DNA of 40,621 bases from a phage: sequence record PX596819.2. One strand, given 5' to 3'. The notes under the pieces are model-generated. The model was not told the DNA's origin, did not search any database, and was given only the letters and a program-made list of their open reading frames with translations. Positions 1 through 40,621 of the stretch are shown piece by piece. The translations under genes and the position numbers were made by a program. How positions within the stretch are numbered: the first letter of the stretch is position 1; each line of letters opens with the position of its first letter.

Positions 1-180
1 AGAGACTCAGAGACAGACCCATAGTCCCAACCTATCGTCTCCACCACCACCGATAGTCATGACCTATCGTTGACCTGAAGTCTTGACAATCGGTCCAACC
101 TTATGATAGACTTGGGTATGGCCTTTGGTCCGGACTGAAAGAGGGACTATGGGGATACTTGAGGTTCTTGAACTGTGAGA
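1..180 (-). repeat. Terminal-repeat-like region (single copy in this window); minus-strand reading begins TCTCACAG and ends GAGTCTCT at window position 1
   Basis: Minus strand of 173-180 reads TCTCACAG, as at the start of the T7 terminal repeat; it lies just beyond gene 19.5 and is flanked by ACTGTAGG-type short repeats. Window start and end are not identical, so the repeat is present once. Confidence 0.4.
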
Positions 181-204
181 TGTGGTCTCAAACTTTTGGT
201 CCAA

Positions 205-400
205 AACTCATCGTCACTACTGTAGGCCACAGCCACTGTAGGTCAAGGACCGTAGGTCAGGCGACACTAGGATAGACCAATAAGTAGGATGACCCTAAGT
301 GAGCTTCTATTAAGGTGTTACCTAAAGTCCTTGACTACAGTAGCTAAGGTCAGTAGAGTAGCGTCAGCTATGAACTGACCTTAGGTCCGTCTTTCGTTGA
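205..400. repeat. Array of short degenerate repeats (ACTGTAGG / CCTAAGG / CCTAAAG-like) next to the terminal repeat
   Basis: Repeated cactgtagg, accgtaggtc, gaccctaagt, cctaaagtcc, gaccttaggtcc motifs visible in sequence; analogous to the short repeat arrays flanking the T7 terminal repeat. Confidence 0.4.
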
Positions 401-417
401 TTGTTACCATGATTGCG

Positions 418-576
418 TTAACCACACTGAGACACCAGAGAACATACGAGAGTCTCGACCCACCCGACCCACTGACTTCCAGCAGTAATGCCAGCAGCAA
501 GTAGAACAGCAGCAAGAAACCTGTATGTAGCTCGATTGGTCGCCAGAGCTTTAAGTACAGCTTTGGTCTTTGCCAT
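418..576 (-). CDS. Small hydrophobic protein at the gene 19.5 position (52 aa)
   Basis: ATG preceded by GGAGGT; lies between the terminase gene and the terminal repeat, as gene 19.5 does in T7. Assigned by position only. Confidence 0.35.
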   Translation of the reverse strand: MAKTKAVLKALATNRATYRFLAAVLLAAGITAGSQWVGWVETLVCSLVSQCG

Positions 577-756
577 ATGCTACATACCTCCTGTATCTAT
601 GGTCGGTGACTATCTGTATTGGAGGGATTATGATTAATATCACCCTCCTTCCATCGGTGCAATCCTTAGGTAAGAACTCGGAGTCTGCCTCCTAAGGTCT
701 TGCATAAAGTCTGCATATGTATATTCACTACAGTAATACTATAAGTAACCATTGGT

Positions 757-779
757 CTTTCCTATAGTGATAGTTAAGT
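757..779 (-). promoter_or_regulatory. Phage RNAP promoter (phiOR-like), minus strand TTAACTATCACTATAGGAAAG
   Basis: Match to the 11-copy promoter consensus of this genome; located after gene 19 as phiOR is in T7. Confidence 0.6.
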
Positions 780-873
780 CCAAACTTCTTATAAAACAGT
801 AGGTTAGACTAGTAGTAACTATAGGTTACTAACTGCGTATTAATTCAGTTTTCGCCTATAGTTATTCATTCAG

Positions 874-2637
874 CTAGTGGAACGTAACGTATGACCCAAG
901 TCCAAGCTCATCGTCCGTATCGTGAGTTACCCTGACACCATTGTCCCAGAACTCAGTGTGGATGGACTCGAAGCCTTTCCGTGGGTTCTCCATCTGTTCC
1001 TCCAGCCACTCCTCAGTGACTTCACGTTCGCCTTTGTTGGCATCCTTAGCCATAGACTCAACGAAGAACTGTACACCGATAGCCAGCGCATCAAGTCGGT
1101 CATCGTGTGCCAAGGCTCCACGTTCACGAGATATACGTGTCATCTGGTAGAAGAGAGAGTAGATAGGGTTACGAACACCATCCTTATCAGAGGCTGACTG
1201 GTAGTCTTGGACGATAGCAGCAGCGTTAACGATAAGTCTGTGAGACCCCATGATAGGCTCCAGAACGTCACAGATTCGGAGTTCTTTCTGACCCTTACTC
1301 TTCACTTCAGTTACAGCAGCAGGATGGATACGGGCCGCTACAGGCTTGAATAACTCAAGGTACATACCATCACCGAAGTTACCCTCAATGACGTATTCGT
1401 TGACCTTCCACTTACGACCAATCTTAGCCAGAGCTTCCAGCGTAGAGTCTTCATAACCGCCACGCATACCACCAACTTCCATCGCGAAGATGTAGCCGTT
1501 GAGCTGGTACAATACAGCATAGCCAGTTTCATCCTTACCACGACCACTAGGGTCAATGACAAGAATCTTCTGGGTGTATGAACTGAAGGCAGAACCTACA
1601 GTCTGATACGTGTGGTATGAGTCACCCATGAGTCCAACGTTAGGAACGTCCTCACGCTTGTTCTGAGGGTTTGGCAGCCATTGGTAGACCATTGGGCTGG
1701 ACGCTGGGTCCAAGTCTGCTACGATAAGGTCACGGAGCTTCAGAGGGTACTTCTCGGCATCACTCAGGTTCGGGTTAAGCATGAACTGTAGAGCGAAGCC
1801 AGCTTTACCATAGGACAGCTCACGTTCCTTCAGGTCAATATCATCGAAGCGTACTTCATCAGTCGGACGCCAGTAGAAGGCCTCAGGGTCCTCTTCCAGC
1901 TCTGCTTGAAGCATAGGAGCCAGACGGTCGCCGTAAGACTGCCAGTCCTTCCTGTCGCGTGGATAACGAGCTGGCCAGATAGTAGTGGTGTACCCACGAC
2001 CTTCCAGCTCACGGTACAGGGTCATCTCGTTCTGAGGAGTACCCAGATAGATGATTGTACCTCCCGGCTTCAGGATAGCGTCGAACTCTTTCACAAGCTC
2101 TGATAGACGGTCTCGCGCAGCCTGAGTAGCAGAGTTGTTTGGAACCTCCACGTCATCGGCAATCAGGATGTCAGCACGACTACCAGTTAACTGACCAGTG
2201 ATACCAACTGACTTAACCGAAGGTGAGTGGTCTGGCTTGGCTGGCCCAACGTCGAAGCTAATAACCGCGTCCCTCTGTCCCTGCTTAGGCTTGAGTTCCT
2301 GAAGCTGAGGCATGAGGTCGATGATACGCTTGATGAAGATGGAGTTCGCATCGGCTCGTTCCTTTGAGGCCGACACAATCATGAACTTCAAGTCTGGGTT
2401 GTTCCATAGCTTCCAGACAACGAAACCACAGGTTAGAAACGACTTACCAATACCACGGAAAGCCTGAAGGATGAAGCGGCGATTATCCCCAGCAGCCAGC
2501 TTCTTACACATATCTATCTGGCAGCGGGTTGGAACCGGAAGGCTAAGAGCTTTCCAGAGAACGAAGATGAAGAACACGAAGTCTGCCTTCATACGGGCAG
2601 TCATTAGCGCCTGACGCGCCACTAAGTCTTTACTCAA
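874..2637 (-). CDS. gp19: Terminase large subunit (DNA maturase B, gp19)
   Basis: 587 aa, same size class as T7 gp19; last large gene of the map; ATPase and nuclease regions recognisable. Confidence 0.93.
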
Positions 2638-3083
2638 TGCGTCGCCTCCTTATCTTGCTGTAAGGCTCTCACAGTGTCCTGAAGTGCCTTAATCCACTTG
2701 TCTCCTTTCACTCCGATGGCGATAAGACGTTTAGCATCTCGTTCGTCAAGTTCGGCGTAACTAGCAATGACGCATCGACCGTCACTTTGTGTGGTTCCAC
2801 TCGTTGGTTTGACTCGGATGCGCAGCCGCTTATTGTCAGACTGAAGGTCAGCAATAATCCTATCAGTGCTGCCTTCCAGCGAGGACATTTCGTCCTGAAA
2901 CCGTTTTGACACTTTGTTGACTTCAGCTTGGACAGCAAGCCTTGTATCTTCCGATGCCTTAAGATTCGAGGTGTATTCTGCATTGACCTTAGCCTCCCAC
3001 TTATTGTTAGCGGTGTGGTAGCCACCAGCAAACATCACTGCTGCAAGTAACCACGGAGCCGCTCTCTTTAAAAATTCGAGCAT
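2634..3083 (-). CDS. gp18.5: i-spanin (Rz-like, gp18.5)
   Basis: 149 aa, N-terminal TM segment ([12 protein letters not shown]) then charged coiled-coil region; sits between small and large terminase genes as in T7. Confidence 0.75.
2708..2983 (-). CDS. gp18.7: o-spanin lipoprotein (Rz1-like, gp18.7) embedded out of frame in gp18.5
   Basis: Alternative frame inside the i-spanin gene encodes a lipobox LTISGC followed by ASESNQ; start taken at the internal Met of the 107-aa ORF, so the exact start is uncertain. Confidence 0.6.
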   Translation of the reverse strand: MQNTPRILRHRKIQGLLSKLKSTKCQNGFRTKCPRWKAALIGLLLTFSLTISGCASESNQRVEPHKVTVDASLLVTPNLTNEMLNVLSPSE

Positions 3084-3143
3084 AGTTGCCCTCCCGGTTT
3101 ATCAGATTTTCACGTAGAGTCTCCTCCACTAGTTAGTGTTAAC

Positions 3144-3185
3144 CATAAAGGCCACTACACATAGTAATGACCTTGAGTCTAACAC
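3144..3185 (-). other. Conserved hairpin motif (copy 1 of 3), candidate RNase III processing site (R18.5-like position)
   Basis: Motif cat(a/g)aaggccac-N13-15-atgaccttgagtcta recurs three times; the transcript folds as an ~11 bp stem (AAGGUCAU.. / ..GUGGCCUU) with a 5 nt loop. Confidence 0.4.
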
Positions 3186-3449
3186 TTATTGAACTCCATA
3201 CCCTGTGTCATTATCTTCCGTAGCGGAGAGCACCTTATCGTACTCTGCGTTCAGGGCCTCCATATCAGCCAGCGTCTTCTCGTCCACAGACACCTTACTT
3301 AACACAAAGTTGTGACGAGCCAGTAGCTTCTCAATGGCGTTGTAAAGCTGAGGCGAACGCTTAGAGTCATCCCGCAGGTCTTGCAGCATGAGTCTAGCAC
3401 GTTCAGTATCTAGCATTAAGAGGAACTTCTCTAAGTCCATCTGCGTCAT
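3186..3449 (-). CDS. gp18: Terminase small subunit (DNA maturase A, gp18)
   Basis: 87 aa; size and position as T7 gp18 between the holin and Rz genes. Confidence 0.75.
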   Translation of the reverse strand: MTQMDLEKFLLMLDTERARLMLQDLRDDSKRSPQLYNAIEKLLARHNFVLSKVSVDEKTLADMEALNAEYDKVLSATEDNDTGYGVQ

Positions 3450-3640
3450 GTTTTACCACCTCCTTTAATCGTTTTGTAGACTAGCACACCAATCTGGACA
3501 ACGGTGTACGCGATAGCTGCAACGTAGAACCATTCGTTCAGTGTAAGTCCGAAGAAGAACCGACTGGCACCATCAGCCGCAGCGGTCCCGACGATAGGAG
3601 AGGCTTTAAGGACCTCATTCTTGAAGTCTAACTCAATCAT
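3446..3640 (-). CDS. gp17.5: Holin (gp17.5-like)
   Basis: 64 aa with a hydrophobic TM segment (WFYVAAIAYTVVQIGVLVY) and charged C-terminus; follows the tail fibre gene as in T7. Confidence 0.75.
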   Translation of the reverse strand: MIELDFKNEVLKASPIVGTAAADGASRFFFGLTLNEWFYVAAIAYTVVQIGVLVYKTIKGGGKT

Positions 3641-3799
3641 AAAACCTCCAGTTTAAAGCGGGTCGTCCGTTACCCAAAGTTGTTACCATACGTTGGTCAG
3701 CGTGTAGTTAGCCTCTACCTCCACAACCTTCGATGGATTTTGATGATGAAATTCCATTCTGATACCATCAACCGCTTCTAAATAACGGGCCATTATTAT

Positions 3800-5995
3800 T
3801 TATACGATATTGTTCCCCATCGGTACCATGCTCATCGTAGGCGCTACGGAGTAGGATACAATAAGAGAATCACCGGGGGCGAGCATAACAAAGCCAGATG
3901 TCATACCTGTCACAGTTTGTGACCCACCGCGATTGAATTGGATACTCGTCACTGTGCCTCCAGTTGTAAGCACATTCTGGTACTCGCCTGTAGTATTTGT
4001 GTAGGTGAACGGGGAAGCCGTAACCGTGATAGGTTGGCGCAATTTTGTCGGGTACACATAAGCATTAGCGTCCAAGTCAAAAACATTACGGAAGCTACTA
4101 TTCGTGCCTGAATCGTAAATGCCTCCGCTGCCAGTGTCAAAATAGTTAACAGTCAGGTTTTCGATGTTCGCGGCAGAACAACCAGACTGCATTTCGATAC
4201 GCTCATGTAAGCCACCTACAATTCTCGCCCGGCGAGATGAACTGAGCAGAACGATGCTTTTGCCTGTATAACAGTTCTCCAGTACCGTATCTTGCCCACC
4301 ATCCAGCAGGTCTGCTGTCCCGTTAGCCTCAAAACCCATACCTACGAACTTATTCTGGCGTGACCCGCCTGAGGTAGTTATACCGTAGGTTCCGTTAGCC
4401 TCAGAAGTTCCGCCTATGAAGGTATTCAGGTCAGTGTCATTCAGGCGAATACCTGTACCCCCAACGCCTTCCATGATGGTATTAATAAACAGGTTTGCTG
4501 TTGACTTCAGGTTTCTGGACGGAGAAGTGCCAAGTACAAGACCGTAGTAAGGCTTGTTAGTAACTGGTTGCTCATTGATGGAATATGTTATGTTCTCGAA
4601 TACACTGGCAACGGTCCATAATAAACTCATAACCTTACCTGTTGTTGGGCTGGCCTCCCTTAAATTGATATTACGCATAGTTAGGTGTGAAGAATTCTCT
4701 ACATATAGAATGTGCTGGGTATTCGCATGACCTTCTATACCAATGTTTTCCACCACAACGTCGTAAACAGCTTGCAAACCATATTCTGAACCGTCGATCT
4801 TAAAAGCCTTCTCACCGGATGTACTTTTAAGGATAGTGTTATTTTTACCGTCCCCGAAAATATGAACACCTTTAACAGCAAAGTTTGGACCAGTCGCATA
4901 CGCATAAATACCAGCAGGGATGTATCCGCGTCGCTTATCTGTCTGGGCCACTACCGCGTTCCTGAATGCTGCCAGCTGTGCACTATTGTCAGTCACACCA
5001 TCACCGACGGCACCGAACCACAAGGCATTAATAGGGCCATCAAAGTCTCTCACCCAGCAACCGCTACCTGAAGGGTCTGATTCTCCGGTACCAGCCAAGA
5101 AAGCTGAGATGGAACTATACGGTACCGATGGGCTTATGATAGTACCACCATTGTGCGACGTTTTTGGCATGGTCGGTACGAAAATAAACTCGCCACCACC
5201 AGTAGGTTTTCCACCTGTTACTAATATATAATCAGAAGACCATGATTTTAGTTTTACCCTTGAGGTATCCCTCCCATATAAGCCATAAAATCCAGAAACG
5301 GAATCTAATTCCCCTATTAATGAATATCCAAGTTTGCTAGCAAGATGACTACGCAATGATGCATCACCAACACTAACCCACGCACCTACTCCAATCCCAC
5401 CGGAAGATTCAGGAGTTGAACCAGTAGGAACGTTCTTTGGAAGCGTACCATCCCAGCGGTAATAATCACTATCCTCCTCCCATAGCAGTACCTCGTTCCA
5501 TGTTGTAATGTTGAAGCCTTTCTCGAAGGAGCGACGGGTAATATAGCCAATTTTACCAGATGCCTTGATACTCTCAGCGATTCGTCGTGCTTCGTCCTCG
5601 CTATCCTTAGCGTTGCCAGCAGAGCTACCAGCGGCATCGGCATATTCCTTCGCTAAGTCAACCGTTTGGTCTCGACCTTCTTCTGCAATATGGATAGCCT
5701 GAAGCTCTGAATTGGTCAGGTCACTAGCTGTCAACACTGAGCCATTCCTGAAGTCTACCACTAAGTCAGTTCCAGTCTGACGGTGAATACGAACGATGTC
5801 GAAACCTGATTGGTCAACCAACATCTCAATCATCGTTGGATTAAAGAATCGGTAATCTCGGCCAACTTCCAGTACACGGTTCATGGTAGGGTTAGAGCTA
5901 TTCACCAGCGTAACAACAACAAACGTTCTGGCTAGGTAGTCGAACTCAATCCTGTAATGAGTGTTTCCTGAAGGGAATTGTGTAATAGTGGACAT
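3800..5995 (-). CDS. gp17: Tail fibre / tail spike (gp17) with T7-like N-terminal anchor and a distinct C-terminal beta-helix-like domain
   Basis: N-terminal ~150 aa (EFDYLARTFVVVTL, VDFRNGSVL, HIAEEGRD) resemble the T7 gp17 tail-attachment domain; the remainder is Gly/Asn/Thr-rich with repeated short strands, typical of tailspike beta-helices. Confidence 0.85.
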   Translation of the reverse strand: MSTITQFPSGNTHYRIEFDYLARTFVVVTLVNSSNPTMNRVLEVGRDYRFFNPTMIEMLVDQSGFDIVRIHRQTGTDLVVDFRNGSVLTASDLTNSELQAIHIAEEGRDQTVDLAKEYADAAGSSAGNAKDSEDEARRIAESIKASGKIGYITRRSFEKGFNITTWNEVLLWEEDSDYYRWDGTLPKNVPTGSTPESSGGIGVGAWVSVGDASLRSHLASKLGYSLIGELDSVSGFYGLYGRDTSRVKLKSWSSDYILVTGGKPTGGGEFIFVPTMPKTSHNGGTIISPSVPYSSISAFLAGTGESDPSGSGCWVRDFDGPINALWFGAVGDGVTDNSAQLAAFRNAVVAQTDKRRGYIPAGIYAYATGPNFAVKGVHIFGDGKNNTILKSTSGEKAFKIDGSEYGLQAVYDVVVENIGIEGHANTQHILYVENSSHLTMRNINLREASPTTGKVMSLLWTVASVFENITYSINEQPVTNKPYYGLVLGTSPSRNLKSTANLFINTIMEGVGGTGIRLNDTDLNTFIGGTSEANGTYGITTSGGSRQNKFVGMGFEANGTADLLDGGQDTVLENCYTGKSIVLLSSSRRARIVGGLHERIEMQSGCSAANIENLTVNYFDTGSGGIYDSGTNSSFRNVFDLDANAYVYPTKLRQPITVTASPFTYTNTTGEYQNVLTTGGTVTSIQFNRGGSQTVTGMTSGFVMLAPGDSLIVSYSVAPTMSMVPMGNNIV

Positions 5996-6043
5996 TATGC
6001 CTCCTGTTATGAATTAAAATGGAGACCTATGGTAGCGCCTCCA

Positions 6044-6066
6044 GTTTCCTATAGTGATAGTTTAGT
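6044..6066 (-). promoter_or_regulatory. Phage RNAP promoter (phi17-like)
   Basis: Minus strand ACTAAACTATCACTATAGGAAACTGGAGG just upstream of gene 17, overlapping the gene 16 stop. Confidence 0.65.
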
Positions 6067-17089: not shown

Positions 17090-18402
17090 TTAGTTTGTGA
17101 AAGATACGTTGAAGGAACGCACAGGCGAACCGTCATACAAAACAATCACTGGACCTTCCACGCCAGAGGTGGCCCTGAAGTAGAGACTGTTGGTTCTACG
17201 GGAGTAACTAACACCATCAGGCGTAGTAACATCAAGAAGCGACCAGTCGGTCACATCTGAAAGCTCCGGGAAGTCAACCTTCAAGCTGGTTCCCACCGTA
17301 GAACTATACGTCTCTAAGGTAGGACCCTCTGTAGAGAGGGCCTTAAGGGTCGTTAACCCCCTGCCGCTGCTGTGAAAACCAGTGCGCCAGCAGCTTCAGG
17401 ACGCAGGCCACCGTGTCCCATAGCGTACTTACCAACAATCAGGTCGCCCTGAGCATCGACGTCACGGTCACGTTCCAGTGCCAAATCACGCAGCTTAACA
17501 GTACCAACAGCAGAACGGTGAGAGAACAGGCCAACAACGTTGTCAAGAGCAACTTTAGTATCACCACCAGCAGTAGCTGGGAAGGCGTGCTTCTGACCAC
17601 TCGCAATAGTGATGCCGTCAGCGCCACGAGTTTCACCAGCACCACCCTGAGTCAAGTGTGGAACTTCAACAACAACGAAGCCCATCACGTTACGGATGTT
17701 ACCAGTCTCTGGGTCAATCAGCGCAGCATAGTTAGCAGCGTTAGGCATCAGAGCAGCGAGGATTGCAGAGTAGTTGTCAGGTGTGGTGTAGAAGTAACGG
17801 TCGCCAGCAGGAACGTAGTTGGCGGTCAGCTTCGCACGAGCAATAGTCAATTGACCAATGATTGCTTCACCTAGTTTAGCTGGAGTGTTGAGGTCAGCTT
17901 TCTTACCAACTTCCAGTACGGACGCAGTACCTAGACCAGCGATGTTCTCGTTGGATGCGGATGGTAGGTTGCACAGGATAGCCATTTCAGCCAGAACAGC
18001 ACCATCAGCAGCGATAGCCAGAGCTTCACCCAACTGGTTGGAATACTCACCAGCAACGTCATAGTGGTTCATCGCGTCTTCAATGTCGAAAATCATCACA
18101 TCGGCAGTCAGAAGACCATCAATGGTAATCACTTTCTCGGTATGTTTGATACCTTTGCGCTTATCGGACAGTCGCTCACCGGGAGCCAGATACACACCAG
18201 AGGTGCGACCCATGACCGGGAACTGAGCAGACTTGCCATTCTGAATGGTACGGACAATATGCTTGTCAGCCGTTACAGAGCGGCGAGTGAATGCGGTCAG
18301 GACTTCACCAGCAAATACCTTCAGGAACAACGCTAGAGCATCGGAACTGGATTTACCTTTACCTTGGTCTGTACCAATTTTCTGACCAGGAACGTTTGCC
18401 AT
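17090..18402 (-). CDS. gp10B: Minor capsid protein 10B, predicted -1 frameshift product of gene 10
   Basis: Slippery heptamer G GTT TTC (plus-strand gaaaacc at about 17374-17380) about 6 codons before the 10A stop; the -1 frame stays open to 17090, adding roughly 94 aa. The 68-aa track ORF 17090..17296 is in exactly that -1 frame. Confidence 0.5.
17353..18402 (-). CDS. gp10A: Major capsid protein 10A
   Basis: 349 aa vs 345 in T7; ends ..ALVFTAAAGG; strong promoter and leader upstream, terminator downstream. Confidence 0.93.
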   Translation of the reverse strand: MANVPGQKIGTDQGKGKSSSDALALFLKVFAGEVLTAFTRRSVTADKHIVRTIQNGKSAQFPVMGRTSGVYLAPGERLSDKRKGIKHTEKVITIDGLLTADVMIFDIEDAMNHYDVAGEYSNQLGEALAIAADGAVLAEMAILCNLPSASNENIAGLGTASVLEVGKKADLNTPAKLGEAIIGQLTIARAKLTANYVPAGDRYFYTTPDNYSAILAALMPNAANYAALIDPETGNIRNVMGFVVVEVPHLTQGGAGETRGADGITIASGQKHAFPATAGGDTKVALDNVVGLFSHRSAVGTVKLRDLALERDRDVDAQGDLIVGKYAMGHGGLRPEAAGALVFTAAAGG

Positions 18403-19504: not shown

Positions 19505-19527
19505 TGTTCCTATAGTGATAGTTTAGG
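19505..19527 (-). promoter_or_regulatory. Phage RNAP promoter (phi9-like)
   Basis: Consensus match upstream of gene 9. Confidence 0.65.
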
Positions 19528-21091
19528 CTTGAGCCATGTCCTCACCAGCTCCCTGACCTACAGCAGCACCCATGTTAGCGCCAGCAGCTGACGCACCGTT
19601 GACCACAGCTCCTTGAGCGGATTGTTCAGCCATGCGCTGAATCTTCTCGTCTTGCGTCAGGAGTAGGCCAGCGGTGTCAATACCAAGAGCGTTCAGGAGT
19701 CGCAGCTTAAGGGTTGGCAAGTTGATGTCAGGGTCCTGAGCTAGCGGCTGAAGACCAGTCATCATGTTAACCGCCTGAGTCAGCTTCTCCAAGTCCTGAC
19801 CACGACCTAACGCTTCCAGACCAGTGGAGACCGTAGGCTCTACCGCTTCTTTCGGAAGTTCAGGAATCATGCCAGCAGACTGAAGTTGGTTCATCAACAC
19901 ACGGACGATAGGTAACTGAAGCTCTTGTGATTGTACTGAGTACACGCCACCTAAGGTCGCCTCCAGTTCGCCAGCAACATAACGAATCTCTTCAGCAGTA
20001 ACTCGCTCAGCATTACGCTGAACAGCACTATTAAGAAGGAAGGCCCAGCCTAAACGTTGCTCGATAGCGTCAGCCACCGACTTGGCAATCGTAAAGTCCT
20101 GACCTTTCGTCAGTTGCAGGAAGTTGATGTCCTCGACGCGACCAGCCACGAACTCACCTGTGGCTGCCTTGTTCAGACGACGAGGCTGCGTGATGCCGTT
20201 CGGGTTAACGAGGCCAACCACCTTGGAGGCTACCTTAGCCATTTTGGTGATAGCTTCTGTAATCGTCTCCAGCGAGTTCAGGTCTCCCAGATACTCCTCG
20301 CAATAAGAACGACCATAGTCTTCACCATCCAGTCGAACCATTCGTACCGGGATGTATGGACATGCAGTCAGTGGGTAGGAACCCTCGGTCCCTGCTACCT
20401 CAATTCCTTCCACTTCCTCATAGCGTAGATACTCGTCGTCCTGACGGTAGATGTGCGTGTACACTTCCAGCTCTGTGTCAGGCTCATAGTCTTCTGCGTT
20501 GAGTTGAGACTTCACGTCTTCTGGTAGAGCACTAAACGCTACCTTGTCGAGAGTCACAATCTGTAAGACGTTACCGAAAGCATCACGTTGAACAACGTAG
20601 GACACTAAGCGGTACATTCGCATAGGACTGTAGGTTCCCTGTTCAGGCTCTGGAATGTAGAGCAGACAGTTACCGGAGACGATAAGCTGCTTCAGAGCTT
20701 CGAACAATGGGACACGGAAACTGTTAGTCTCCATGTAGGCCATCAATACACGCTCGACCATAGCAAGCCCTTCGTCAACACGAGCAGCAGCCTCTGAGTC
20801 CTGACTCAAGGTCTTGGCTTCATATTCTGAGACTGTCAGTCGCATCCACGGTGACTGAGGGAATAACGCCAACATCAGCTTTGCAGCTAAGTTGTTCAAA
20901 CAGCGAGCACCTACAGCTTGCCACGGCGTCACGTATTCCGTAGACGAGTTGTCGGACTCCTTAGGAAACAGTGACGGGATGGTAACGGCAGCACAGTTTT
21001 GTGCGCGGGTCTCGTAAGGCTGTCGTCCGTTCTTCAGTCTATCATAAACTGCCTTCGCTCCTTCAGCAGCAAACCCTTCACGTTCAGCCAT
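19523..21091 (-). CDS. gp8: Portal (head-tail connector, gp8)
   Basis: 522 aa vs 536 in T7; synteny. Confidence 0.9.
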   Translation of the reverse strand: MAEREGFAAEGAKAVYDRLKNGRQPYETRAQNCAAVTIPSLFPKESDNSSTEYVTPWQAVGARCLNNLAAKLMLALFPQSPWMRLTVSEYEAKTLSQDSEAAARVDEGLAMVERVLMAYMETNSFRVPLFEALKQLIVSGNCLLYIPEPEQGTYSPMRMYRLVSYVVQRDAFGNVLQIVTLDKVAFSALPEDVKSQLNAEDYEPDTELEVYTHIYRQDDEYLRYEEVEGIEVAGTEGSYPLTACPYIPVRMVRLDGEDYGRSYCEEYLGDLNSLETITEAITKMAKVASKVVGLVNPNGITQPRRLNKAATGEFVAGRVEDINFLQLTKGQDFTIAKSVADAIEQRLGWAFLLNSAVQRNAERVTAEEIRYVAGELEATLGGVYSVQSQELQLPIVRVLMNQLQSAGMIPELPKEAVEPTVSTGLEALGRGQDLEKLTQAVNMMTGLQPLAQDPDINLPTLKLRLLNALGIDTAGLLLTQDEKIQRMAEQSAQGAVVNGASAAGANMGAAVGQGAGEDMAQA

Positions 21092-24128: not shown

Positions 24129-24728
24129 CTTTCTGTATTCTCCCATTACTGGAAGTGTCGGACTATATCATCAGTCTTTGAGGTGACTGTCTGGCGCTTC
24201 GGGTTACGTGGGAATCTCACCCACGGCCCTACTCCTTTCGGATAGTCTCTACGCCTTCCACTCTCTCTAATCCACCCACAGGCGGCTGAGAACGACACAT
24301 TGAATACTTCGGCTAACTTCGTTCCAGTACACCCAGTCTCTACCCAGTAGTCTCGTGCTTCTAGCTTCCTAGCAGCGTATCGCTCTTGGTTTGTCTTGAC
24401 TAAGTGTGAGTCCCGGTCTAATACTTGTAGATGTTCGACGTTGCAGCAAGCTCTATTATGACACTTGTGGTCTACTTCGAAACCTTCAGGTATTGGACCA
24501 TTAGCTTTAGTCCATAAAGTTCTATGATACATCTCTAGGACACCGTTAGTCCTCTTTCGGAAGTATCCATCCTGATTCAATTTATGTGACGTAGGGATTA
24601 TGCAGCCAGTCTCAGTGGCCTCAAGAATTAACTTCTTGCCTCTCATACATCCTCCCTATGGCTTGGCTCGGTATTGTCCCATTAGGAGTTCACCGAGTTC
24701 ACCAGATTTAATGTGCACCATGATGTTA
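24129..24728 (-). mobile_element. Intervening sequence (about 600 nt) in the DNA polymerase gene: putative group I intron carrying an HNH homing endonuclease ORF
   Basis: Polymerase reading frame is interrupted after ..AYMAWVH by an in-frame TAA and resumes at DELQ.. 600 nt downstream; the upstream exon ends in T and the insert ends in G (AAAG|GAT), as at group I intron boundaries; the insert encodes an HNH protein. Confidence 0.7.
24146..24646 (-). CDS. HNH homing endonuclease encoded inside the polymerase intervening sequence
   Basis: 166 aa with HNH motif EVDHKCHNRACCNVEHLQV and the upstream GYFRKR..YHRTLW..GPIP pattern typical of phage HNH endonucleases. Confidence 0.8.
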   Translation of the reverse strand: MRGKKLILEATETGCIIPTSHKLNQDGYFRKRTNGVLEMYHRTLWTKANGPIPEGFEVDHKCHNRACCNVEHLQVLDRDSHLVKTNQERYAARKLEARDYWVETGCTGTKLAEVFNVSFSAACGWIRESGRRRDYPKGVGPWVRFPRNPKRQTVTSKTDDIVRHFQ

Positions 24729-26744
24729 ATGCACCCATGCCATGTACGCGAAGTCTCCTTCCCAGCCGTGTACATACCCGGCCTCTTCGAGCATACGTTC
24801 AGTCTCAACAATCCAGTGCTTACAGACTACCGCACCATCACCTTGAAGTAAGGCGTTCAGTGCTGAGTGTGGAGACCGGATGTGAATGCGGCGACCGTCA
24901 AGTCCACGCAGCCAACGGCGTTTCCACTTAACGATGTTCTCTCCGTCAACCCACTTAGAGTCTGAGATTAACGTACTACTCACAGCTTCCCTGAGGTCCT
25001 TGATGGCTGGTGTACCCTCAATGAATTTCTTCATGAGAGCTGAACCTTCCTTCTTACCACCTCCTACTATCAGTCCAATCTTAGCGGCCCCTGCGCCATA
25101 CAGGAACGCATAGATGAACGTCTTAGCGTTGTTACGGAAAGCATCATGGTCGTGGTTAGACTTATCGCGTGGGACGTTAGGTGCTAACCCAGCGTTGACT
25201 GCGTTGGCCCAGTGGATGTCACCTTCGACCACAGTCTTCGCATAGTCACCACCATCAAACGGAGCCGCTCTGTTCCCCAGACAACGAAGCTCAAGACCTG
25301 AGGCATCCACACCTACTTGAATCCAAGGGTCTGGATTACCGTCCTTCTTGTTCCATGCTGCACCGAAAGCACCACGGCAAGTCTCACCATATGGAGCACC
25401 GTTAGCAGGGACCTGAGCCATGTTTGGTGAACTATGAGTAGCACGTCCGGTTACTGCCCCGCATGGGTTGATTGAACCATGCATACGTCCGTCTGGACCT
25501 ACAAGTTTCAACCATGCGTTCTTACCTTCAGCCGCCTGACCAATGCGCTTCTGGACTACCAGATACTCACGGACCAGCTCTACGCAAGCCTGAGCCTCTG
25601 CGTCTGGTAACTTAACGTGTTCTAACGTCTCGTCATCGACTACAGGTTTCCCGGTGTCAGTGAAGTCCACAGGCTCCCAACCACGCTCCATCAGAACTTT
25701 CGCTAAGTGGTCTCCGCTTCCCGGATTAAACTCAACGTAAGTGATAGGTGTGAACGGTGCTCCCTCCATCGTGTCTCGTGAGTCGAACTCACAAGGTTCC
25801 AGACCTAAGCGTTGAGCTTTGTTCTTCGGCTTCTTGAATACTGACCCGACCTTAGGATACACGACTCGCGGATACTTCGGAAGGTCCTTGCCTGTCCGTG
25901 GGTGCTTGAAGAACTCCTTGCCACCCTTCGGTGCATACCAGCTACCGAAAGTCGAACGCAGCTTGTCCAGCAGCTCTGCACGTTTGACGGTGAGTTCACG
26001 ATATAAGCCTTCGACCATCTCGGTGTTCATCGGGTAGCCGTTACGTTCCATCTTCGCACAGGTCCACGCAGCATCATGTTCCAGACGCAACGCATAAATC
26101 TGGTCGAAGGCGAACTGTTCAGACTGGAAGTAATACTTGTCAGTCAGGAACTTCTTGAACAACGCCAGTGTGACCACAACGTCTTGAACGTTATAGTCCA
26201 GCATCTCCTGAGACGGTAACAACCATTCGTCCCCAGCCTTATATTCGATACCTTCAGCCTTGCACTTGGCAACGTAATCGTGTTTGTATTCACCTTTCAT
26301 CTCACCAAGACGATAGCCCCAAGCCTCAAGAGACTGACGTCCCATCATCTTAGGTGGCAGACGACCAGCTTTCACCGCGCCCATGTCTGAGAACTTAATG
26401 TTTGGATACATCAAGCGCCCCAGCACCAAGGTATCAATCATCTTGTGTTTCGGGAAGTTAAAACGTTTCCCAAAGTACAGACGTTTCAGCTTGTCAATAG
26501 CAGGGACGTCATAGTTTATACCATTATGGAAGACAAGCATACCATCAGGTGATGCGGCAATCTCTTCCACTTTATGCACATACTCTTTGAAGCCACCGAC
26601 GATACCGACCATCGGAGCTACCCCATACTTAATGGTCTCATTCGACTCGGCGTTAATCAGGACCCCGCAGTGGAACTGGGAGACTGTATCAAGGAGACCG
26701 TTTGTCTCGATGTCAGAACACCAGATACTCTTAAGGTCAAACAT
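24729..26744 (-). CDS. gp5: DNA polymerase (family A, T7 gp5-like), 5' exon
   Basis: Strong resemblance to T7 DNAP throughout (DIETNGLL, FHCGV, MDYNVQDVVVT, KNKAQR, GRATHSSPNMAQVP, DASGLELRC, FAYMAWVH). Start placed at the internal ATG with GGAGGA 6 nt upstream (MFDLKSIW); the track ORF begins earlier at 26780. Confidence 0.93.
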
Positions 26745-26765
26745 GGTTAATCCTCCGTTTAGTCT

Positions 26766-26806
26766 AATCATAAAGGCCACTCGATGTGAATGACCTTGAG
26801 TCTAGA
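26766..26806 (-). other. Conserved hairpin motif (copy 2 of 3), candidate RNase III site (R4.7-like position)
   Basis: Same motif as at 3144 and 34998; lies between genes 4 and 5. Confidence 0.4.
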
Positions 26807-26807
26807 C

Positions 26808-26983: not shown

Positions 26984-28687
<1,704 letters not shown>

Positions 28688-33015: not shown

Positions 33016-33033
33016 GTCTATATGGTGGCCCAG

Positions 33034-33070: not shown

Positions 33071-33074
33071 GACG

Positions 33075-34777: not shown

Positions 34778-34781
34778 AGCG

Positions 34782-35009: not shown

Positions 35010-35035
35010 GACTTTGAGTCATGACCTTGAGTCTA
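34998..35035 (-). other. Conserved hairpin motif (copy 3 of 3) at the 5' end of the phi1.1 transcript, candidate RNase III site (R1.1-like)
   Basis: Minus strand UAGACUCAAGGUCAUGACUCAAAGUCGUGGCCUUCAUG: 11 bp stem with two G-U pairs and a 5 nt loop, immediately downstream of the promoter. Confidence 0.45.
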
Positions 35036-35055
35036 ATCCTATAGTGATAGTTTAG
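35033..35055 (-). promoter_or_regulatory. Phage RNAP promoter (phi1.1-like)
   Basis: Minus strand CCCTAAACTATCACTATAGGATTAGACTC; first phage promoter downstream of gene 1, as in T7. Confidence 0.65.
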
Positions 35056-35131
35056 GGTTAACCTCTTCTGCGTTGGACTAAAATGAATACTGCGAGTGTT
35101 CCCAGCCACAAGGCCAGCAACTGTAGGTCTG

Positions 35132-35362
35132 TCATTTGGTTGCCTCTTCCCGTAGGGCCTTCTCGTGTGACCACTGTATTACCTGAATCAGCTCCTTCTG
35201 GCTGATACATTTGGCCTTAGCCGTTCCAGTCGGTACCATAGTCACCTTGACCAGACCTTTACCCGCCACTGTGGTTACGGTAACTACCTTGTTGCCACCA
35301 GATACGTTTGATACACGGTGTGCGAATTGCATGTTGTCTCTCCTGTTGTTAAGCGAATGCAA
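35132..35362 (-). CDS. Hypothetical small protein between gene 1 and the phi1.1 promoter (gene 1.05-like position)
   Basis: 76 aa ORF with TTG start overlapping the RNAP stop by 14 nt; an internal ATG (MQFAHRV..) is also possible. Weak. Confidence 0.3.
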   Translation of the reverse strand: MHSLNNRRDNMQFAHRVSNVSGGNKVVTVTTVAGKGLVKVTMVPTGTAKAKCISQKELIQVIQWSHEKALREEATK

Positions 35363-38030
35363 AGTCTGAAGACAAGATGTCTTCGATATTCAGTTTACCT
35401 TTCTTCGGAAGCTCAGGCAACTTGTCGCGCTGGCTCTCGTGAAGCTGGTACTCGAACTGCTCGTAGAAGTCGAGCAGCACATCGTTGTCGCGGTAGGTCT
35501 CGACCATCGTCTCACGGACACCACGGAACAGATACTCAGCATCAGCAGGAATGGTCCCGAAGCTATCGTGAATAACTGCGAATGACATCACACCATACTT
35601 GCGGTGAGTGTGGACTACAGTCTTGCGGAGGTGGCTGCCATCTTGTGAGTGAACGAAGTTCGGGCTAATGCCTGACTCCTGCTTGTGCTTGTCCAGCTCT
35701 TTCTTCGTGCCTTTATTGACTGTAGGTTGAAGGTTAAATGACCCTAAGAACATCAGGTTCAGACGCGTGGTATCCTTCTTGCGGTATTCCTGCCAGACCG
35801 GGAAACCATCAGGTGTTACCCAGTGTACCGGAAGGCAAGGCTTCAGGATTTCACCAGTTTTCTTGTCCTTCACCTCAGCAGCCAGCAGCTTGGCAGCACC
35901 TTGAAGCCACTTCATCGCGTCTACCGCAGCAACCACGGTCACACTCACAGCCTCCCAGATCATCTTAGCCATGAAGCGAGACGCTTGTCTTGGTTCAGTG
36001 AACATAGCGCCAGACCCTGAGTCAATCGCGGGCATCACGATGTCCTCGTACACTTGGTCTGCGAAGCCATACTCTTTCGACCCGTAGGCCAGAGTCATGA
36101 CCGAACGCTTAGTGACCTTGCGTGACATGCCGTAGGTCAGCCACTGACGGGCCAGCTCTCGTGTCCCCAGCTTGAGACGTTCGGTAATCTCACCAGTTTT
36201 CTTGTCCTCGTGAGTCACCATCTCGTTGTCCGTACCGTTAACCAGCAGGACTTTAAGCTCCTCCTCAATGCGGTCAGACACAATGCGGTAGATGTCTTGG
36301 ACCTTACCGGATGGAGTTAGGTTTACTGCATGTCCACCGATGTGGTCACGAAGCATCGCGCTGAAGTGCTGAATACCAGAGCAGGACCCGTCGAACGCTA
36401 TTGGCAGCGAACATGAGTAAGACAGTCCGTGGTGCATTACGCCAGCATACTCGAAGCAGAACGCTAGGAAGCAGAACGGAGAGTCTAACTTGCCCCACCA
36501 CTCAATGCTATCCATCGGTGCTTTGGCAGCAGCCATGATGTTGTCGTGGTTGTCTTCCACCCACTTGATGCGCTCCTCGAAGGTGACTTTATCGACACCC
36601 GCACAGTTTGCACCGTGGACCTTCAGCCATTTGAAACCATCAGCACCAATAGGCTTACCGACTGCCAGAGTCAGTAGACCCTTCTGCATGTCGTTACCCT
36701 GAGGGTTGAACATCGGCACAGCGTAGACGCGACCGCGCCAGTCCATGTTGTACGGGAACCAGATGGCCTTGAACTGAGAGAACTTGTTCGCTTGGTTGAC
36801 GATAAAGCTCAATGATAATCTGCGTGACTGTCTGGCCTTCTCGCGGCGATAGATGCCAGCAGCAGCCTTCTTCCACGCCTTGAGGTCCTCTTCAGTCTCT
36901 CCCACATAGTCTTCAGGCTTCAGTGGTTCCATCTGAGGGATGTCGTCAATAGGCGTGTTGTTCAGCTTCTCGACCATGTTCACTACGTCCAGCACCTTCT
37001 TGTTCACTTTCCAAGGTGTATTCTGGATGATGTTCACAGCGTCATAGACTTCAGGCATGTACACGTCTTCGTAACGTGCTACCGCAGACTTAGACCCTAA
37101 GCGAATCAATGGTAACGGTCTGCGACCTTTGGCCCAGTAACCACCGCCTACGACACCCGTCCACGGCTTAGGTGGAACGACGCACGGTTGGTAGACTGGC
37201 GCGATACCTGCAAGGCTGAAGCCACGTTGCGCCATCTTCTTGACCCAGAAGTCTGACAGGTGGACCATCTCAACATCAGCCGCTGCATTGCCAGCACCAT
37301 AACGCTTAAGCTCGACCAGTTGTGTAGACTGTATGACAATCTCAAGCATCTTGATGCCGACGTGTACCGCTTCTGTAGGACTCCAAGTACCCCACGCATC
37401 TTCCAGTTGGCCTTGCTCCAGCATGGAGGTCTCAACCGCTTGCATGTAGGCTTTCTTGTAGGATACCCCTGCTCGCTTGTTCAGGTTCTCAGCAATCGCC
37501 TTCTTGAAGTGCTCCTGCTCCTTATCACGGATGCGGCCGAAGCGGATTTCATCTTCCAGTGTGCGACCTATCGCGGATGCCATAGGAGTTATCGGAATGC
37601 CTTCAGGCTTGACCAGCTTGCTGAGGATGACTTTCAGTATGATGATCGCAGCAGACTCCGCAGAGATTAGCAGAGAGCGGTCTTTTACAGCCTTCTCGTC
37701 AGTGCTCAGCATGGTAAACGCTACGCTTGGACGCGAGGTCGATGACTTACCGTCCGGGCCTTCATGCCACTCACGGAAAGCCTTAGCGATGGTCGGAACC
37801 AGCGTTTGCATCAAAGGTTTGGCGACCTGATTGTCTGCCAGTTCCCCTCGCTCGGTCTGGCGCTCAAGGTTCTTGATGAAACGTCGCTCGCCTTCAGTGT
37901 ATGCCTCATGCTCAAGCTGAAGCTGTTTGACTGCAAGGTCTTGCCCGTAGTGGTTGGCCAGCAGGTTAAACGGCTCAATGGCGTTCGACACATCAGAGAA
38001 GTCGTGTTTGTCAATAGAGATGACGCTCAT
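35349..38030 (-). CDS. gp1: Single-subunit DNA-directed RNA polymerase (T7 gp1-like)
   Basis: 893 aa vs 883 in T7; ends ..DFAFA like T7 RNAP; AAGGA 8 nt upstream of the ATG. Confidence 0.97.
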   Translation of the reverse strand: MSVISIDKHDFSDVSNAIEPFNLLANHYGQDLAVKQLQLEHEAYTEGERRFIKNLERQTERGELADNQVAKPLMQTLVPTIAKAFREWHEGPDGKSSTSRPSVAFTMLSTDEKAVKDRSLLISAESAAIIILKVILSKLVKPEGIPITPMASAIGRTLEDEIRFGRIRDKEQEHFKKAIAENLNKRAGVSYKKAYMQAVETSMLEQGQLEDAWGTWSPTEAVHVGIKMLEIVIQSTQLVELKRYGAGNAAADVEMVHLSDFWVKKMAQRGFSLAGIAPVYQPCVVPPKPWTGVVGGGYWAKGRRPLPLIRLGSKSAVARYEDVYMPEVYDAVNIIQNTPWKVNKKVLDVVNMVEKLNNTPIDDIPQMEPLKPEDYVGETEEDLKAWKKAAAGIYRREKARQSRRLSLSFIVNQANKFSQFKAIWFPYNMDWRGRVYAVPMFNPQGNDMQKGLLTLAVGKPIGADGFKWLKVHGANCAGVDKVTFEERIKWVEDNHDNIMAAAKAPMDSIEWWGKLDSPFCFLAFCFEYAGVMHHGLSYSCSLPIAFDGSCSGIQHFSAMLRDHIGGHAVNLTPSGKVQDIYRIVSDRIEEELKVLLVNGTDNEMVTHEDKKTGEITERLKLGTRELARQWLTYGMSRKVTKRSVMTLAYGSKEYGFADQVYEDIVMPAIDSGSGAMFTEPRQASRFMAKMIWEAVSVTVVAAVDAMKWLQGAAKLLAAEVKDKKTGEILKPCLPVHWVTPDGFPVWQEYRKKDTTRLNLMFLGSFNLQPTVNKGTKKELDKHKQESGISPNFVHSQDGSHLRKTVVHTHRKYGVMSFAVIHDSFGTIPADAEYLFRGVRETMVETYRDNDVLLDFYEQFEYQLHESQRDKLPELPKKGKLNIEDILSSDFAFA

Positions 38031-38099
38031 ACTTAAAGTCCTTGTTATTAGTCTTTCACTTAAAGTCTCTTTGTTCTTTCACTTGGAGTCTTAGACCTT

Positions 38100-38122
38100 G
38101 AGTCCTATAGTGATAGTTAAGT
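38100..38122 (-). promoter_or_regulatory. Phage-RNAP-type promoter directly upstream of the RNAP gene
   Basis: Minus strand CTTAACTATCACTATAGGACTCAAGGTC, a full match to the consensus core, placed between the last early ORF and gene 1 and oriented into gene 1. Confidence 0.55.
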
Positions 38123-38127
38123 CAGAA

Positions 38128-38520
38128 TTACTTGCATATCAGCTGGTTAGCGTGGAGATGACTGAAGTCACCGTGAGTCGTGTGCTTGATGGTTGACCGT
38201 TGGTCTATCGCCTTCCAGCCTGAGACCAGAAGTTTACCATCGTCGGTGATTGGTCGTCCACCATACGCCAGACACATCTGCTCGGACTTATGGCCCTCGG
38301 CCAGGAGTCGTGCTTGCAGAACCCGGTCGCGCTCCTGCTGTTGACGTGCGGTATGTGACGAGTGGCGATGAACATAAGCGGTCTTGTTCCCTGTCTTCTC
38401 CCAGTAGTTGCGACCGCGAGGGTCCGTGCCGACGTACTTCCACTCTACGCCGTTCTTATCAGTGAATGTGTGAAGCGATGTGATTGAGTCCATTGCATGT
38501 ACCAGATTTGCCATATTCAT
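38128..38520 (-). CDS. Hypothetical early protein (130 aa), His-rich, immediately upstream of RNAP
   Basis: Start overlaps the upstream ORF stop (TAATG); no motif I recognise. Confidence 0.5.
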   Translation of the reverse strand: MNMANLVHAMDSITSLHTFTDKNGVEWKYVGTDPRGRNYWEKTGNKTAYVHRHSSHTARQQQERDRVLQARLLAEGHKSEQMCLAYGGRPITDDGKLLVSGWKAIDQRSTIKHTTHGDFSHLHANQLICK

Positions 38521-38723
38521 TACAGTTTACTCCCAAGAGTTGCTATATCCCAGACGTTCGCTAAGTTGCGCATGAATCGTCCGTTAGGTTGACGCACAGT
38601 CCAGCGACCCAGACGTACATAGTTGAATTTGTAGACTTTACGCGCTTTGTGGATGTCTTTCACCAGCACGTAGGCGATAAGTCCATAGCCTATGGCTATC
38701 AATAGTGCAAGACTCATAGTCAT
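38520..38723 (-). CDS. Small early membrane protein (67 aa, N-terminal TM then basic tail)
   Basis: MTMSLALLIAIGYGLIAYVLV then KDIHKARKVYKF..; ATG overlaps the upstream mini-ORF stop (ATGA). The track shows a 106-aa TTG-initiated extension that I consider less likely. Confidence 0.45.
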   Translation of the reverse strand: MTMSLALLIAIGYGLIAYVLVKDIHKARKVYKFNYVRLGRWTVRQPNGRFMRNLANVWDIATLGSKL

Positions 38724-38824
38724 AAACCCCAGAACAGTTGAGTAAGGACAGGAAGTTTGCCGACTAGAGTAAACATTCCCCACGCTACGAAGCCTGAGAT
38801 AGTCCAGATGATTGCAGTGTTCAT
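38720..38824 (-). CDS. Mini-ORF encoding a 34-aa hydrophobic peptide (MNTAIIWTISGFVAWGMFTLVGKLPVLTQLFWGL)
   Basis: GGAG 7 nt upstream of the ATG; stop overlaps the next start; single TM-like segment. Below the ORF-track size cut-off. Confidence 0.35.
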   Translation of the reverse strand: MNTAIIWTISGFVAWGMFTLVGKLPVLTQLFWGL

Positions 38825-38899
38825 AGTTAACTCCTATCAATGCAAGTGGTAATCTTTGAGGCCACCTGTCAGTTAGATGACCTCTCGTCTATCACTCTC

Positions 38900-39271
38900 C
38901 TACACTTCTACCGCGACGGTTGTCATCTTGGTTACAGTAAGTCCACCAGCCAGCTCAACTGCATAGCGTATCGCCTCGTCTTTGGACCTGAAATCTTTAC
39001 CAGCAAGGTGGTAAATGTCGCCGTTTATTACTTTGGCTGGCTTGCGGCTAACTGCTATAGCGTTGCTAAGGGAAAGCTCACCCTTCGACCACTGAGAGTG
39101 CCAGCGGCATACGCTCTTAGGAGATACGTTGAAGTCACTGGCCACCTTCGCAAGCATAGAGTCAAGTCTAGAAGAGCTACATTGAGGCTGGCGCACCAAG
39201 TCGTATGCCTTTGCTACTCGTATTTTAAAATCTACCGTGTAGCTGTTGCGGCTTTTAGTAGTTGTGTTCAT
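38900..39271 (-). CDS. Early helix-turn-helix DNA-binding protein (IS3-type transposase HTH-like N-terminus)
   Basis: YTVDFKIRVAKAYDL...LAKVASDFNVSPKSVCRWHSQW matches the pattern I associate with HTH_Tnp_1-type domains; no transposase catalytic ORF follows. Confidence 0.45.
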   Translation of the reverse strand: MNTTTKSRNSYTVDFKIRVAKAYDLVRQPQCSSSRLDSMLAKVASDFNVSPKSVCRWHSQWSKGELSLSNAIAVSRKPAKVINGDIYHLAGKDFRSKDEAIRYAVELAGGLTVTKMTTVAVEV

Positions 39272-39344
39272 GAGTGTATCCTTTGTTAATTAATTAAATA
39301 AGTGACAATCAGTCAGGCCACCAGCATTGATGACCTGTAGTCTA

Positions 39345-39494
39345 TCACTTAGCGTGCAAACTGTCGTGTATGCGCTTGCGGCCATCATAGACCGCTTTCA
39401 GGTGACGCATAGCGGCATCATGGTTTAATTGCCCGTTCTTGACCATAATCCGGGCGTTGGTTACGTGGTGTTGACAGAGACCATAAGTTACCAT
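39345..39494 (-). CDS. Possible small basic ORF (about 49 aa) coupled to the end of the kinase-like gene
   Basis: ATG lies 2 codons before the upstream stop with GAGGTGAGG upstream; fills an otherwise empty 216 nt gap. Weak. Confidence 0.25.
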   Translation of the reverse strand: MVTYGLCQHHVTNARIMVKNGQLNHDAAMRHLKAVYDGRKRIHDSLHAK

Positions 39495-40012
39495 CTTGAT
39501 GACCTCACCTCTTGCAGCTTGGAAACAAGGAAGAAGCAGTCCACCAGTATCAGCTTACCATTAATAGCCCGTACATTTCGTGGGCTTATCTCAAATTGAA
39601 TGTCTGACCCGAAGTTAGCGCAAGCATCCAGCGCCATCAGCACATCCATCAGACCTTCCCGCACAGTCTCAGTATCAGACCTGTCGTGTGCAGCTTGGAA
39701 TATCTCGTACCACCTGTGATACAGTTCAGCAGGTCTAGAGAATACAGGAGACCGTGAGAAGCAATCCCGCAGCACCTGATAGAGTTGCCACTGGTCATCA
39801 TCTAAATGCGCTTTGAGACCTCGTGTTGGTGGTATGTAGTCCATCTCATACGTGCCTACCTCAATCATCTTGACTTCAGGGAACAGTGGAGACTCAGGGA
39901 ACCATCCCCACGCCATACACTCCTTTATCGGGTCAGAAGAGACCAGAAGAACACGCTTCCCGCAATCCTTCAGGTAGCACTTAGTGAACGCGCCTTTGCC
40001 TATCAGTTTCAT
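39488..40012 (-). CDS. First early gene: gp0.7-like protein kinase domain protein (174 aa), lacking a shutoff-domain extension
   Basis: Gly-rich loop KLIGKGAFTKCY, then FGSDIQFEISPRNVRAINGKLILVDCFF, resembling the T7 gp0.7 kinase-domain segments LGNGHFSAAY and [25 protein letters not shown] as I recall them; AGGA 8 nt upstream of the ATG. Confidence 0.4.
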   Translation of the reverse strand: MKLIGKGAFTKCYLKDCGKRVLLVSSDPIKECMAWGWFPESPLFPEVKMIEVGTYEMDYIPPTRGLKAHLDDDQWQLYQVLRDCFSRSPVFSRPAELYHRWYEIFQAAHDRSDTETVREGLMDVLMALDACANFGSDIQFEISPRNVRAINGKLILVDCFFLVSKLQEVRSSRW

Positions 40013-40209
40013 GTTGTTTATCCTATAGTTAGTGACTATCAGTCAGGGCCTTCAGATGTAGACTCAAAGACCCTGTAGTTAATCACTATCGCTAGCAAGC
40101 TAGCTATCGGCGCACATTAAGAGTTTATCCAGATTGTTAAAGAGCACTCCCTTCAGTCAGAGGACTTCAGGTAGACCATTTCAGTGTTGGTCATCACCAT
40201 TGTTTCGAT

Positions 40210-40246
40210 GTGGTGCATACTACTTTAAGTCGGTACATCTTGTCAA
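40210..40246 (-). promoter_or_regulatory. Candidate host sigma70 early promoter (TTGACA-18 nt-TAGTAT)
   Basis: Minus strand TTGACAAGATGTACCGACTTAAAGTAGTAT about 200 nt upstream of the first early gene; perfect -35, good -10. Confidence 0.4.
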
Positions 40247-40497
40247 CTGCTTTCTGTCATCTGCCTGTTGTTCGTATGACTTATCAGGCTGTCTACTTAA
40301 CCGTGATGACCCGGCGTCTTCACTATCCGGTTGTTGCCGTGTCGTGTTGACGGAAGCTATTAGGCCATAGTCTAGACCTATAGTCAATAGGTAATTTGAA
40401 TTAATATCAATTAAGCTATCGTCGGCCCCATAGTGACTAAGAGGATATAGTCTTTGACTAAGATGTCTTCGACCTTAAGTCTATAGCTTTGTGTTTA

Positions 40498-40592
40498 TTA
40501 ACTGTAGGTCCTTGACTGTAGGCTGTGAGTGTCTTATGGTTGTGACTGTAGGTTAGTGAGACTGTAGGTTAGTGAGACTGTAGGTGTAGGAC
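40498..40592. repeat. Short direct repeats near the genome left end, including gactgtaggttagtga present about 2.5 times in tandem
   Basis: gactgtagg occurs five or more times in about 95 nt; analogous to the CCTAAAG-type repeats at the T7 left end. Confidence 0.5.
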
Positions 40593-40621
40593 GTAATGTT
40601 ATACTATATCACTATACAGAT

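Follow-up and report, generated by a model that had tools for sequence, protein, structure and literature searches.

What does sequence record PX596819.2, a stretch of phage DNA of 40,621 nt, represent: a circularly permuted unit genome with one copy of a terminal repeat, as an earlier note on this DNA had proposed, or a linear genome that simply starts at one of its own ends? We analysed the whole stretch (hereafter the window) from its sequence and by homology. It is almost certainly a complete, unit-length K1F-like genome (genus Kayfunavirus, subfamily Studiervirinae), given in reverse complement relative to the conventional map and carrying one copy of a direct terminal repeat (DTR) of ~180 bp at positions 1-180, so that base 1 is the predicted right end and the second copy is omitted after position 40621. 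Short exact terminal repeats and the T7-type concatemer junction are themselves already known: they have been recognised ever since T7 was sequenced, and K1F and related phages have been described as having them.

The terminal repeat and the orientation of the genome

The reverse complement of positions 1-180 aligns over its full length to annotated DTRs with 88-93% identity and E-values down to 6e-70, and when the reverse complement of 1-260 is aligned with the right ends and annotated repeats of SH3 and Vec13, the homologous repeat begins exactly at TCTCACAG. From one boundary to the other, the candidate repeat is homologous with the annotated repeats of SH3, Vec13 and K1F, among which the ends of SH3 have been mapped by run-off Sanger sequencing of virion DNA, giving a repeat of 183 bp, while the K1F repeat has been quoted as 179 bp, from Scholl and Merril 2005 (PMC4925675). 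Matching the start of each record with its end gives DTR lengths of 178 bp for K1F, 179 bp for Vec13, 184 bp for SH3 and 160 bp for T7. The earlier note had singled out TCTCACAG, on the minus strand at 173-180, as a T7-like left-end hallmark. The octamer is indeed present there but has no statistical weight by itself, as it occurs at chance frequency in the window (3 matches against 3.08 expected), and it was rejected as a stand-alone hallmark; it is meaningful because it is placed at the start of the homologous repeat, and not because of its frequency.

The start and the end of the window share no prefix/suffix overlap of at least 5 nt, and no second copy of 1-180 was found within it by a sensitive self-BLAST, in which the segment matches only itself; exactly one repeat copy is therefore present. 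Reverse-complemented, the end of the window begins with ATCTGTATAG. This corresponds to the sequence with which the unique part of the genome opens beyond the left repeat in Vec13, K1F and T7; in Vec13 and K1F these bases are ATCTGTAT. The boundary in T7 reads ...GTGTCCCT|ATCTGTTACA, and that formed by joining the window ends reads ...GAGTCTCT|ATCTGTATAG. A 43-mer taken across the joined ends has an exact internal match in L009, a 39,300-bp IMG/VR contig from a related phage, and since positions 4316|4317 of this contig map to window base 1 and 40621, the window ends join with neither gap nor overlap. The same boundary, GAGTCTCT|ATCTGTA, is unchanged in all 12 Kayfunavirus junctions compared (eight IMG/VR contigs together with SH3, Vec13, K1F and Penshu1).

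The ends of the repeat are conserved, and its distal half is variable, with 27 invariant columns out of 60 at window positions 41-100 among six phages. Measured from TCTCACAG, the repeats at the 12 Kayfunavirus junctions range from 166 to 191 nt, that of L009 (4150-4316) being ~14 nt shorter than the repeat of the window; a repeat-specific 42-mer had no exact match in IMG/VR or in the JGI metagenomes. From the relatives, in which the homologous segment lies at both ends, we infer that the same sequence would stand at both ends of the virion DNA, for which we predict a length of 40,621 + 180 = about 40,801 bp, with TCTCACAG...GAGTCTCT at either end. An unusual annotation is found in Providencia phage EPr2 (OM256482.1), where a 179-bp DTR is given four times (1-179, 501-679, 40583-40761 and 41083-41261); the pattern suggests ~500 bp duplicated at the record ends and not a biological feature.

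The minus strand carries all the long open reading frames (ORFs) with family matches, and these follow the T7 order, as seen from the ORF list and PHROG searches (Table 1). By megablast, K1F, CLB_P1, ST31 and other Kayfunavirus phages are 93-94% identical over 88-91% of the first 25 kb of the window, and the canonical Kayfunavirus records nearly all match it on the opposite strand. The nearest GenBank phages are ~94% identical to the window, and no identical record was found in the phage collection. T7-order genes on the minus strand, together with opposite-strand matches to the relatives, indicate a further K1F-like phage given in reverse complement, in agreement with the orientation proposed earlier. 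Compared directly with K1F, SH3 and Vec13, the window shows 93-96% identity across the right end and across about 88% of the structural half, and has the same gene order and a homologous repeat with the same boundaries. In contrast, the three relatives contain both repeat copies in the conventional orientation where the window has one copy and is reversed, and the C-terminus of the tail fibre and several early genes diverge, alignment coverage being 76-91%.

The concatemer junction compared with that of T7

Read in genome orientation, the junction runs from the terminase gene through a phiOR-like promoter, a gene 19.5 homologue, an inverted-repeat block, the terminal repeat, ATCTGTA and a heptamer array to a sigma-70-like promoter. 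T7 shows the same succession of phiOR-like promoter, gene 19.5, heptamer block, repeat, heptamer array and early promoters. The first 8 nt of the repeat, TCTCACAG, are identical in the two phages, and the repeat ends in both with a pyrimidine-rich stretch (...GTCTCT in the window, ...GTCCCT in T7) that is directly followed by ATCTGT. The two differ in the length of the repeat (180 bp in the window, 160 bp in T7), in the heptamer (CCTACAG as opposed to CCTAAAG), in the number of heptamers on the two sides (about 6 + about 5 as opposed to roughly 12 + 5, by a loose pattern) and in the last base of the motif beyond the repeat (ATCTGTA as opposed to ATCTGTT). The T7 phiOR promoter lies between genes 19 and 19.5, and the corresponding 24-mer of the window is the reference copy of a family of 10 copies, all of which contain the promoter-like core CTATCACTATAGG (5' to 3', minus strand). 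Where the gene 19.5 homologue lies, the relatives annotate a hypothetical protein.

The earlier note had also described short-repeat arrays at 40498-40592 and 205-400 that flank the junction as in T7. Repeat blocks do occur on both sides, highly significant on one and modestly so on the other. The head-to-tail CCTACAG array, which occupies 40502-40590, stands out clearly, with 6 matches against 0.47 expected (Poisson P about 1e-5) in what is the richest 200-nt bin of the window, and within it a 16-nt unit is repeated 2.6 times in perfect tandem at 40544-40585. Both the unit sequence and the copy number of this array vary among the relatives (12 junctions), and the stretch 40542-40601, with 20 of 60 columns invariant among six phages, is together with 41-100 the least conserved part of the junction.

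On the other side, the claim holds in part. On the minus strand, the block at 206-384 contains three CCTAC(A/G)G heptamers (220-256); the plus strand adds two copies with one mismatch each, at 321 and 334. This makes five where about one is expected (P about 0.003-0.005), but these are arranged mainly as inverted repeats and not head to tail. Nested inverted repeats pair 206-257 with 320-354, and a perfect 11-bp hairpin pairs 344-354 with 374-384. Folded as single-stranded DNA, the stretch 181-400 gives z = -2.94, with one of 200 shuffles folding as well, as against z = -1.65 for the equivalent stretch of T7. The block is a candidate counterpart of the hairpin intermediate that Chung, Nardone and Hinkle reportedly proposed for T7 in 1990. 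It is ~90% invariant among six relatives, like the remaining right end. A first alignment had suggested an exceptional conservation of the 440 nt left of the repeat; this was rejected with longer flanks, which showed ~90% invariance among the six phages for the right end as a whole, the last part of the terminase gene included, so that the 440-nt block is not special. Genome-wide, CCTACAG occurs in 29 copies against 6.1 expected, a number that no shuffle reached, and 22 of these copies lie outside the two terminal blocks, on both strands.

Onto this layout, observed directly in the window as are the homology of the repeat, its boundaries, its single copy and the orientation, the pausing, cutting and repeat duplication of T7 may be projected. 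By this analogy, replication would produce concatemers with one repeat between successive unit genomes, and transcription from the phiOR-like promoter at 758-781 would pass through the repeat. The polymerase may then pause at the ATCTGTA that directly follows the repeat. Cleavage at the repeat boundaries would be the work of the gp18/gp19 terminase, and duplication of the repeat would leave each packaged genome with a copy at both ends. A class II pause/terminator signal lies within the T7 concatemer junction, its core, ATCTGTT, being strictly conserved and preceded by A, C or T (10.1101/2021.01.11.426313; 10.64898/2026.02.12.705533), and the paused complex of T7 polymerase and lysozyme has been reported to interact with gp18 and gp19, starting maturation and packaging (PMC3276506, citing Zhang and Studier 2004). 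In the window, the homologous position is occupied by T-ATCTGTA, which is unchanged in 12 of 12 relatives and departs at base 7 from the strict core of T7. On its sense strand, the window contains one copy of ATCTGTA where about three per strand are expected, which is not significant; an avoidance of the motif on the sense strand was considered and rejected on this ground, ATCTGTT itself occurring there twice.

It is tentatively suggested that Kayfunaviruses use ATCTGTA as a variant class II signal at the concatemer junction, and that the inverted repeats at 206-384 form a hairpin that would prime duplication of the repeat, although we hold this to be rather doubtful. Were both elements to act in this way, co-evolution within Kayfunavirus would have linked the junction to the pause specificity of the RNA polymerase.

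Several points weigh against the account given so far. The hairpin role of the 206-384 block draws on one folding z-score (-2.94) and on the model reportedly proposed for T7 in 1990. Where the repeat ends on the right is ambiguous by 3-4 nt, the SH3 repeat taking in ATCT and those of K1F, Vec13 and T7 stopping before it. The last base of the pause-like motif departs from the T7 core (ATCTGTA versus ATCTGTT), and any base change has been reported to abolish the signal for T7 RNA polymerase (10.1101/2021.01.11.426313). Finally, the canonical ATCTGTT is present twice within genes on the sense strand (28476-28482 and 35527-35533, minus strand), and if the polymerase of the window responded to it as that of T7 does, pausing inside genes would follow. 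Given the mismatch in the last base and these genic copies, a pause function of ATCTGTA in this phage is graded as plausible, and no firmer. One of the two sense-strand copies of ATCTGTT lies within the RNA polymerase gene.

Alternative ends and the form of the record

The ambiguity of the right boundary leads to a reading in which the true repeat is 183-184 bp long and includes ATCT, as in SH3, the window then being cut 3-4 nt inside the repeat. The SH3 repeat, 183 bp by run-off sequencing and 184 bp as annotated, ends in ...GAGTCTCTATCT, and the same ATCT spans the joined ends of the window. However, the boundary lies before ATCT in T7 (160 bp, ...CCCT and then ATCTGT), in K1F (178 bp in the record; 179 bp quoted from Scholl and Merril 2005 in PMC4925675) and in Vec13 (179 bp), and we consider the longer repeat unlikely, albeit well worth bearing in mind. 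Repeats of 180 and of 183-184 bp both fit a unit-length sequence equally. The statement in the earlier note that the true virion ends need experimental definition is thus true in a weak sense, as homology to T7, K1F, Vec13 and SH3 already places them within about 4 nt.

With the repeat taken as positions 1-180, the next question is how a single copy came to stand at the very start of the record. In concatemers and in collapsed assemblies there is one repeat copy per unit, with doubled read coverage over the repeat (PMC5000459), and T7-like records that hold a single copy and start arbitrarily have been deplored in a published comment (PMC9503643). BLAST with the repeat by itself matched 293 places in 235 phage records, and 40 of 60 rows among the matches listed have one repeat copy, usually internal and at an arbitrary position; of the related GenBank records, about three quarters contain a single copy, which is thus the usual form. 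The window could accordingly be one more arbitrary circular permutation of a collapsed assembly, with its breakpoint at the repeat boundary by chance, as many related records are arbitrary permutations with an internal single repeat, the contig L009 for example. The breakpoint of the window, however, equals to the base the repeat end and the first unique base of T7, K1F and Vec13, in line with the cut at the repeat boundary that the earlier note had suspected. A random cut would fall on this exact base about once in 40,000, so that a deliberate or terminus-driven cut is far likelier and an accidental one highly improbable. Headful (pac) packaging, in which the virion DNA would be truly circularly permuted and terminally redundant without fixed ends, has in its favour only the word 'permuted' and a unit-length contig that is by itself compatible with it, and it can be set aside as practically negligible, because the large terminase is of the T7 gp19 type (phrog_38) and not of the pac type, the 180-bp segment is homologous to exact DTRs with the experimentally mapped ends of SH3, and the T7-type junction layout is fully conserved, with the window cut at the exact DTR boundaries kept across the genus.

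A linear unit genome cut at its own repeat boundary has a precedent in Penshu1 (MK903281), whose record carries the remark 'right end of genome sequence not duplicated in this record'. Like the window, this record begins at a terminus with the DTR and contains one deposited repeat; it differs in being given in the conventional orientation from the left end, whereas the window runs from the right end on the complementary strand. The second copy may have been lost when the repeats were collapsed in the assembly, or it may have been left off on purpose, as a convention of deposition; what set the start of the window was probably terminus-detection software, homology or the physical end itself. 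Since the window runs straight from the predicted right end and only the second repeat is missing, as in the Penshu1 convention, 'circularly permuted' is a poor and not well supported label in the description proposed earlier, the remainder of which (a unit-length genome with a single T7-type repeat of about 180 bp at 1-180, and start and end sequences that are not identical) agrees with the alignments and self-comparison above. In practice, downstream tools should not handle the window as circular or permuted, and the record has to be reverse-complemented and supplied with the second 180-bp repeat (about 40,801 bp) in order to represent the DNA in the capsid.

Promoters, early region and tail fibre

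Table 1. Features of the window in relation to its ends, its junction and its orientation
Feature	Position	Strand	Description
Direct terminal repeat	1-180	-	Single copy; TCTCACAG...GAGTCTCT in genome orientation; based on end-to-end alignment with the annotated DTRs of SH3, Vec13 and K1F
Predicted termini	1 and 180		Base 1, predicted physical right end (repeat end ...GTCTGTCTCTGAGTCTCT); base 180, first left-end base
TCTCACAG	173-180	-	First 8 nt of the repeat, predicted left-end terminus; identical in T7
Heptamer/inverted-repeat block	206-384	.	Left of the right repeat; position like that of the T7 heptamers preceding the right repeat
Gene 19.5 homologue	418-576	-	52 aa; phrog_2193, E = 1.5e-24; position of T7 gene 19.5
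Phage-RNA-polymerase promoter-like 24-mer	758-781	-	Between terminase and gene 19.5 homologue; phiOR position
Large terminase subunit (T7 gp19 type)	874-2637	-	phrog_38, E = 7e-131; expected cutter at the repeat boundaries
Rz-like spanin	2634-3083	-	PHROG match
Tail fibre	3800-5995	-	731 aa; PHROG match
Major capsid protein	17353-18402	-	PHROG match
Portal	19523-21091	-	PHROG match
DNA polymerase	24726-26780	-	PHROG match
Single-subunit phage RNA polymerase	35349-38030	-	phrog_414, E = 0; early, left part of the genome; marks the reverse orientation
Sigma-70 promoter-like site	40217-40246	-	TTGACA/18 nt/TAGTAT, directed towards the early genes; 10 of 12 consensus matches
CCTACAG head-to-tail array	40502-40590	-	Five exact copies and one variant; close to the left repeat on its right side, in the place of the T7 CCTAAAG array
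ATCTGTA	40615-40621	-	Opens the unique sequence that follows the repeat in a concatemer; at the place of T7 ATCTGTT (CJ site)
Junction stretch			Spans the pause-like motif: ...GAGTCTCTATCTGTATAG...

The counterparts of the large terminase gene in the relatives are labelled either terminase large subunit or maturation protein. At the opposite end of the window, the sigma-70-like site would be comparable to the T7 A promoters by its position only; a consensus scan found two such sites against 1.6 expected, which is not statistically distinctive. In the first 1500 nt of T7, phiOL at 405 is the only annotated phage promoter, and the repeat-family scan of the window turned up no phiOL-like phage promoter near the left end. 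A copy of the promoter-like 24-mer is found at 38101-38124 on the minus strand, ~70 nt upstream of the start of the RNA polymerase ORF at 38030, and from this position the phage polymerase could transcribe its own gene.

The early region is mosaic, relatives covering only 76-81% of it. Its first sizeable ORF (39488-40012, minus strand) encodes 174 aa and matches phrog_11084, a family with no assigned function. SH3 has at roughly the same position gp2, annotated as an 'ocr-like anti-restriction' gene, and homology between the two was considered and rejected, as their comparison found no detectable similarity.

The tail-fibre ORF begins with a T7 gp17-like N-terminal adaptor of ~230 aa. In its C-terminal part, the matches are to other tail and tail-spike families and not to the K1F endosialidase annotation. 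This C-terminal difference suggests a receptor or capsule specificity different from that of K1F.

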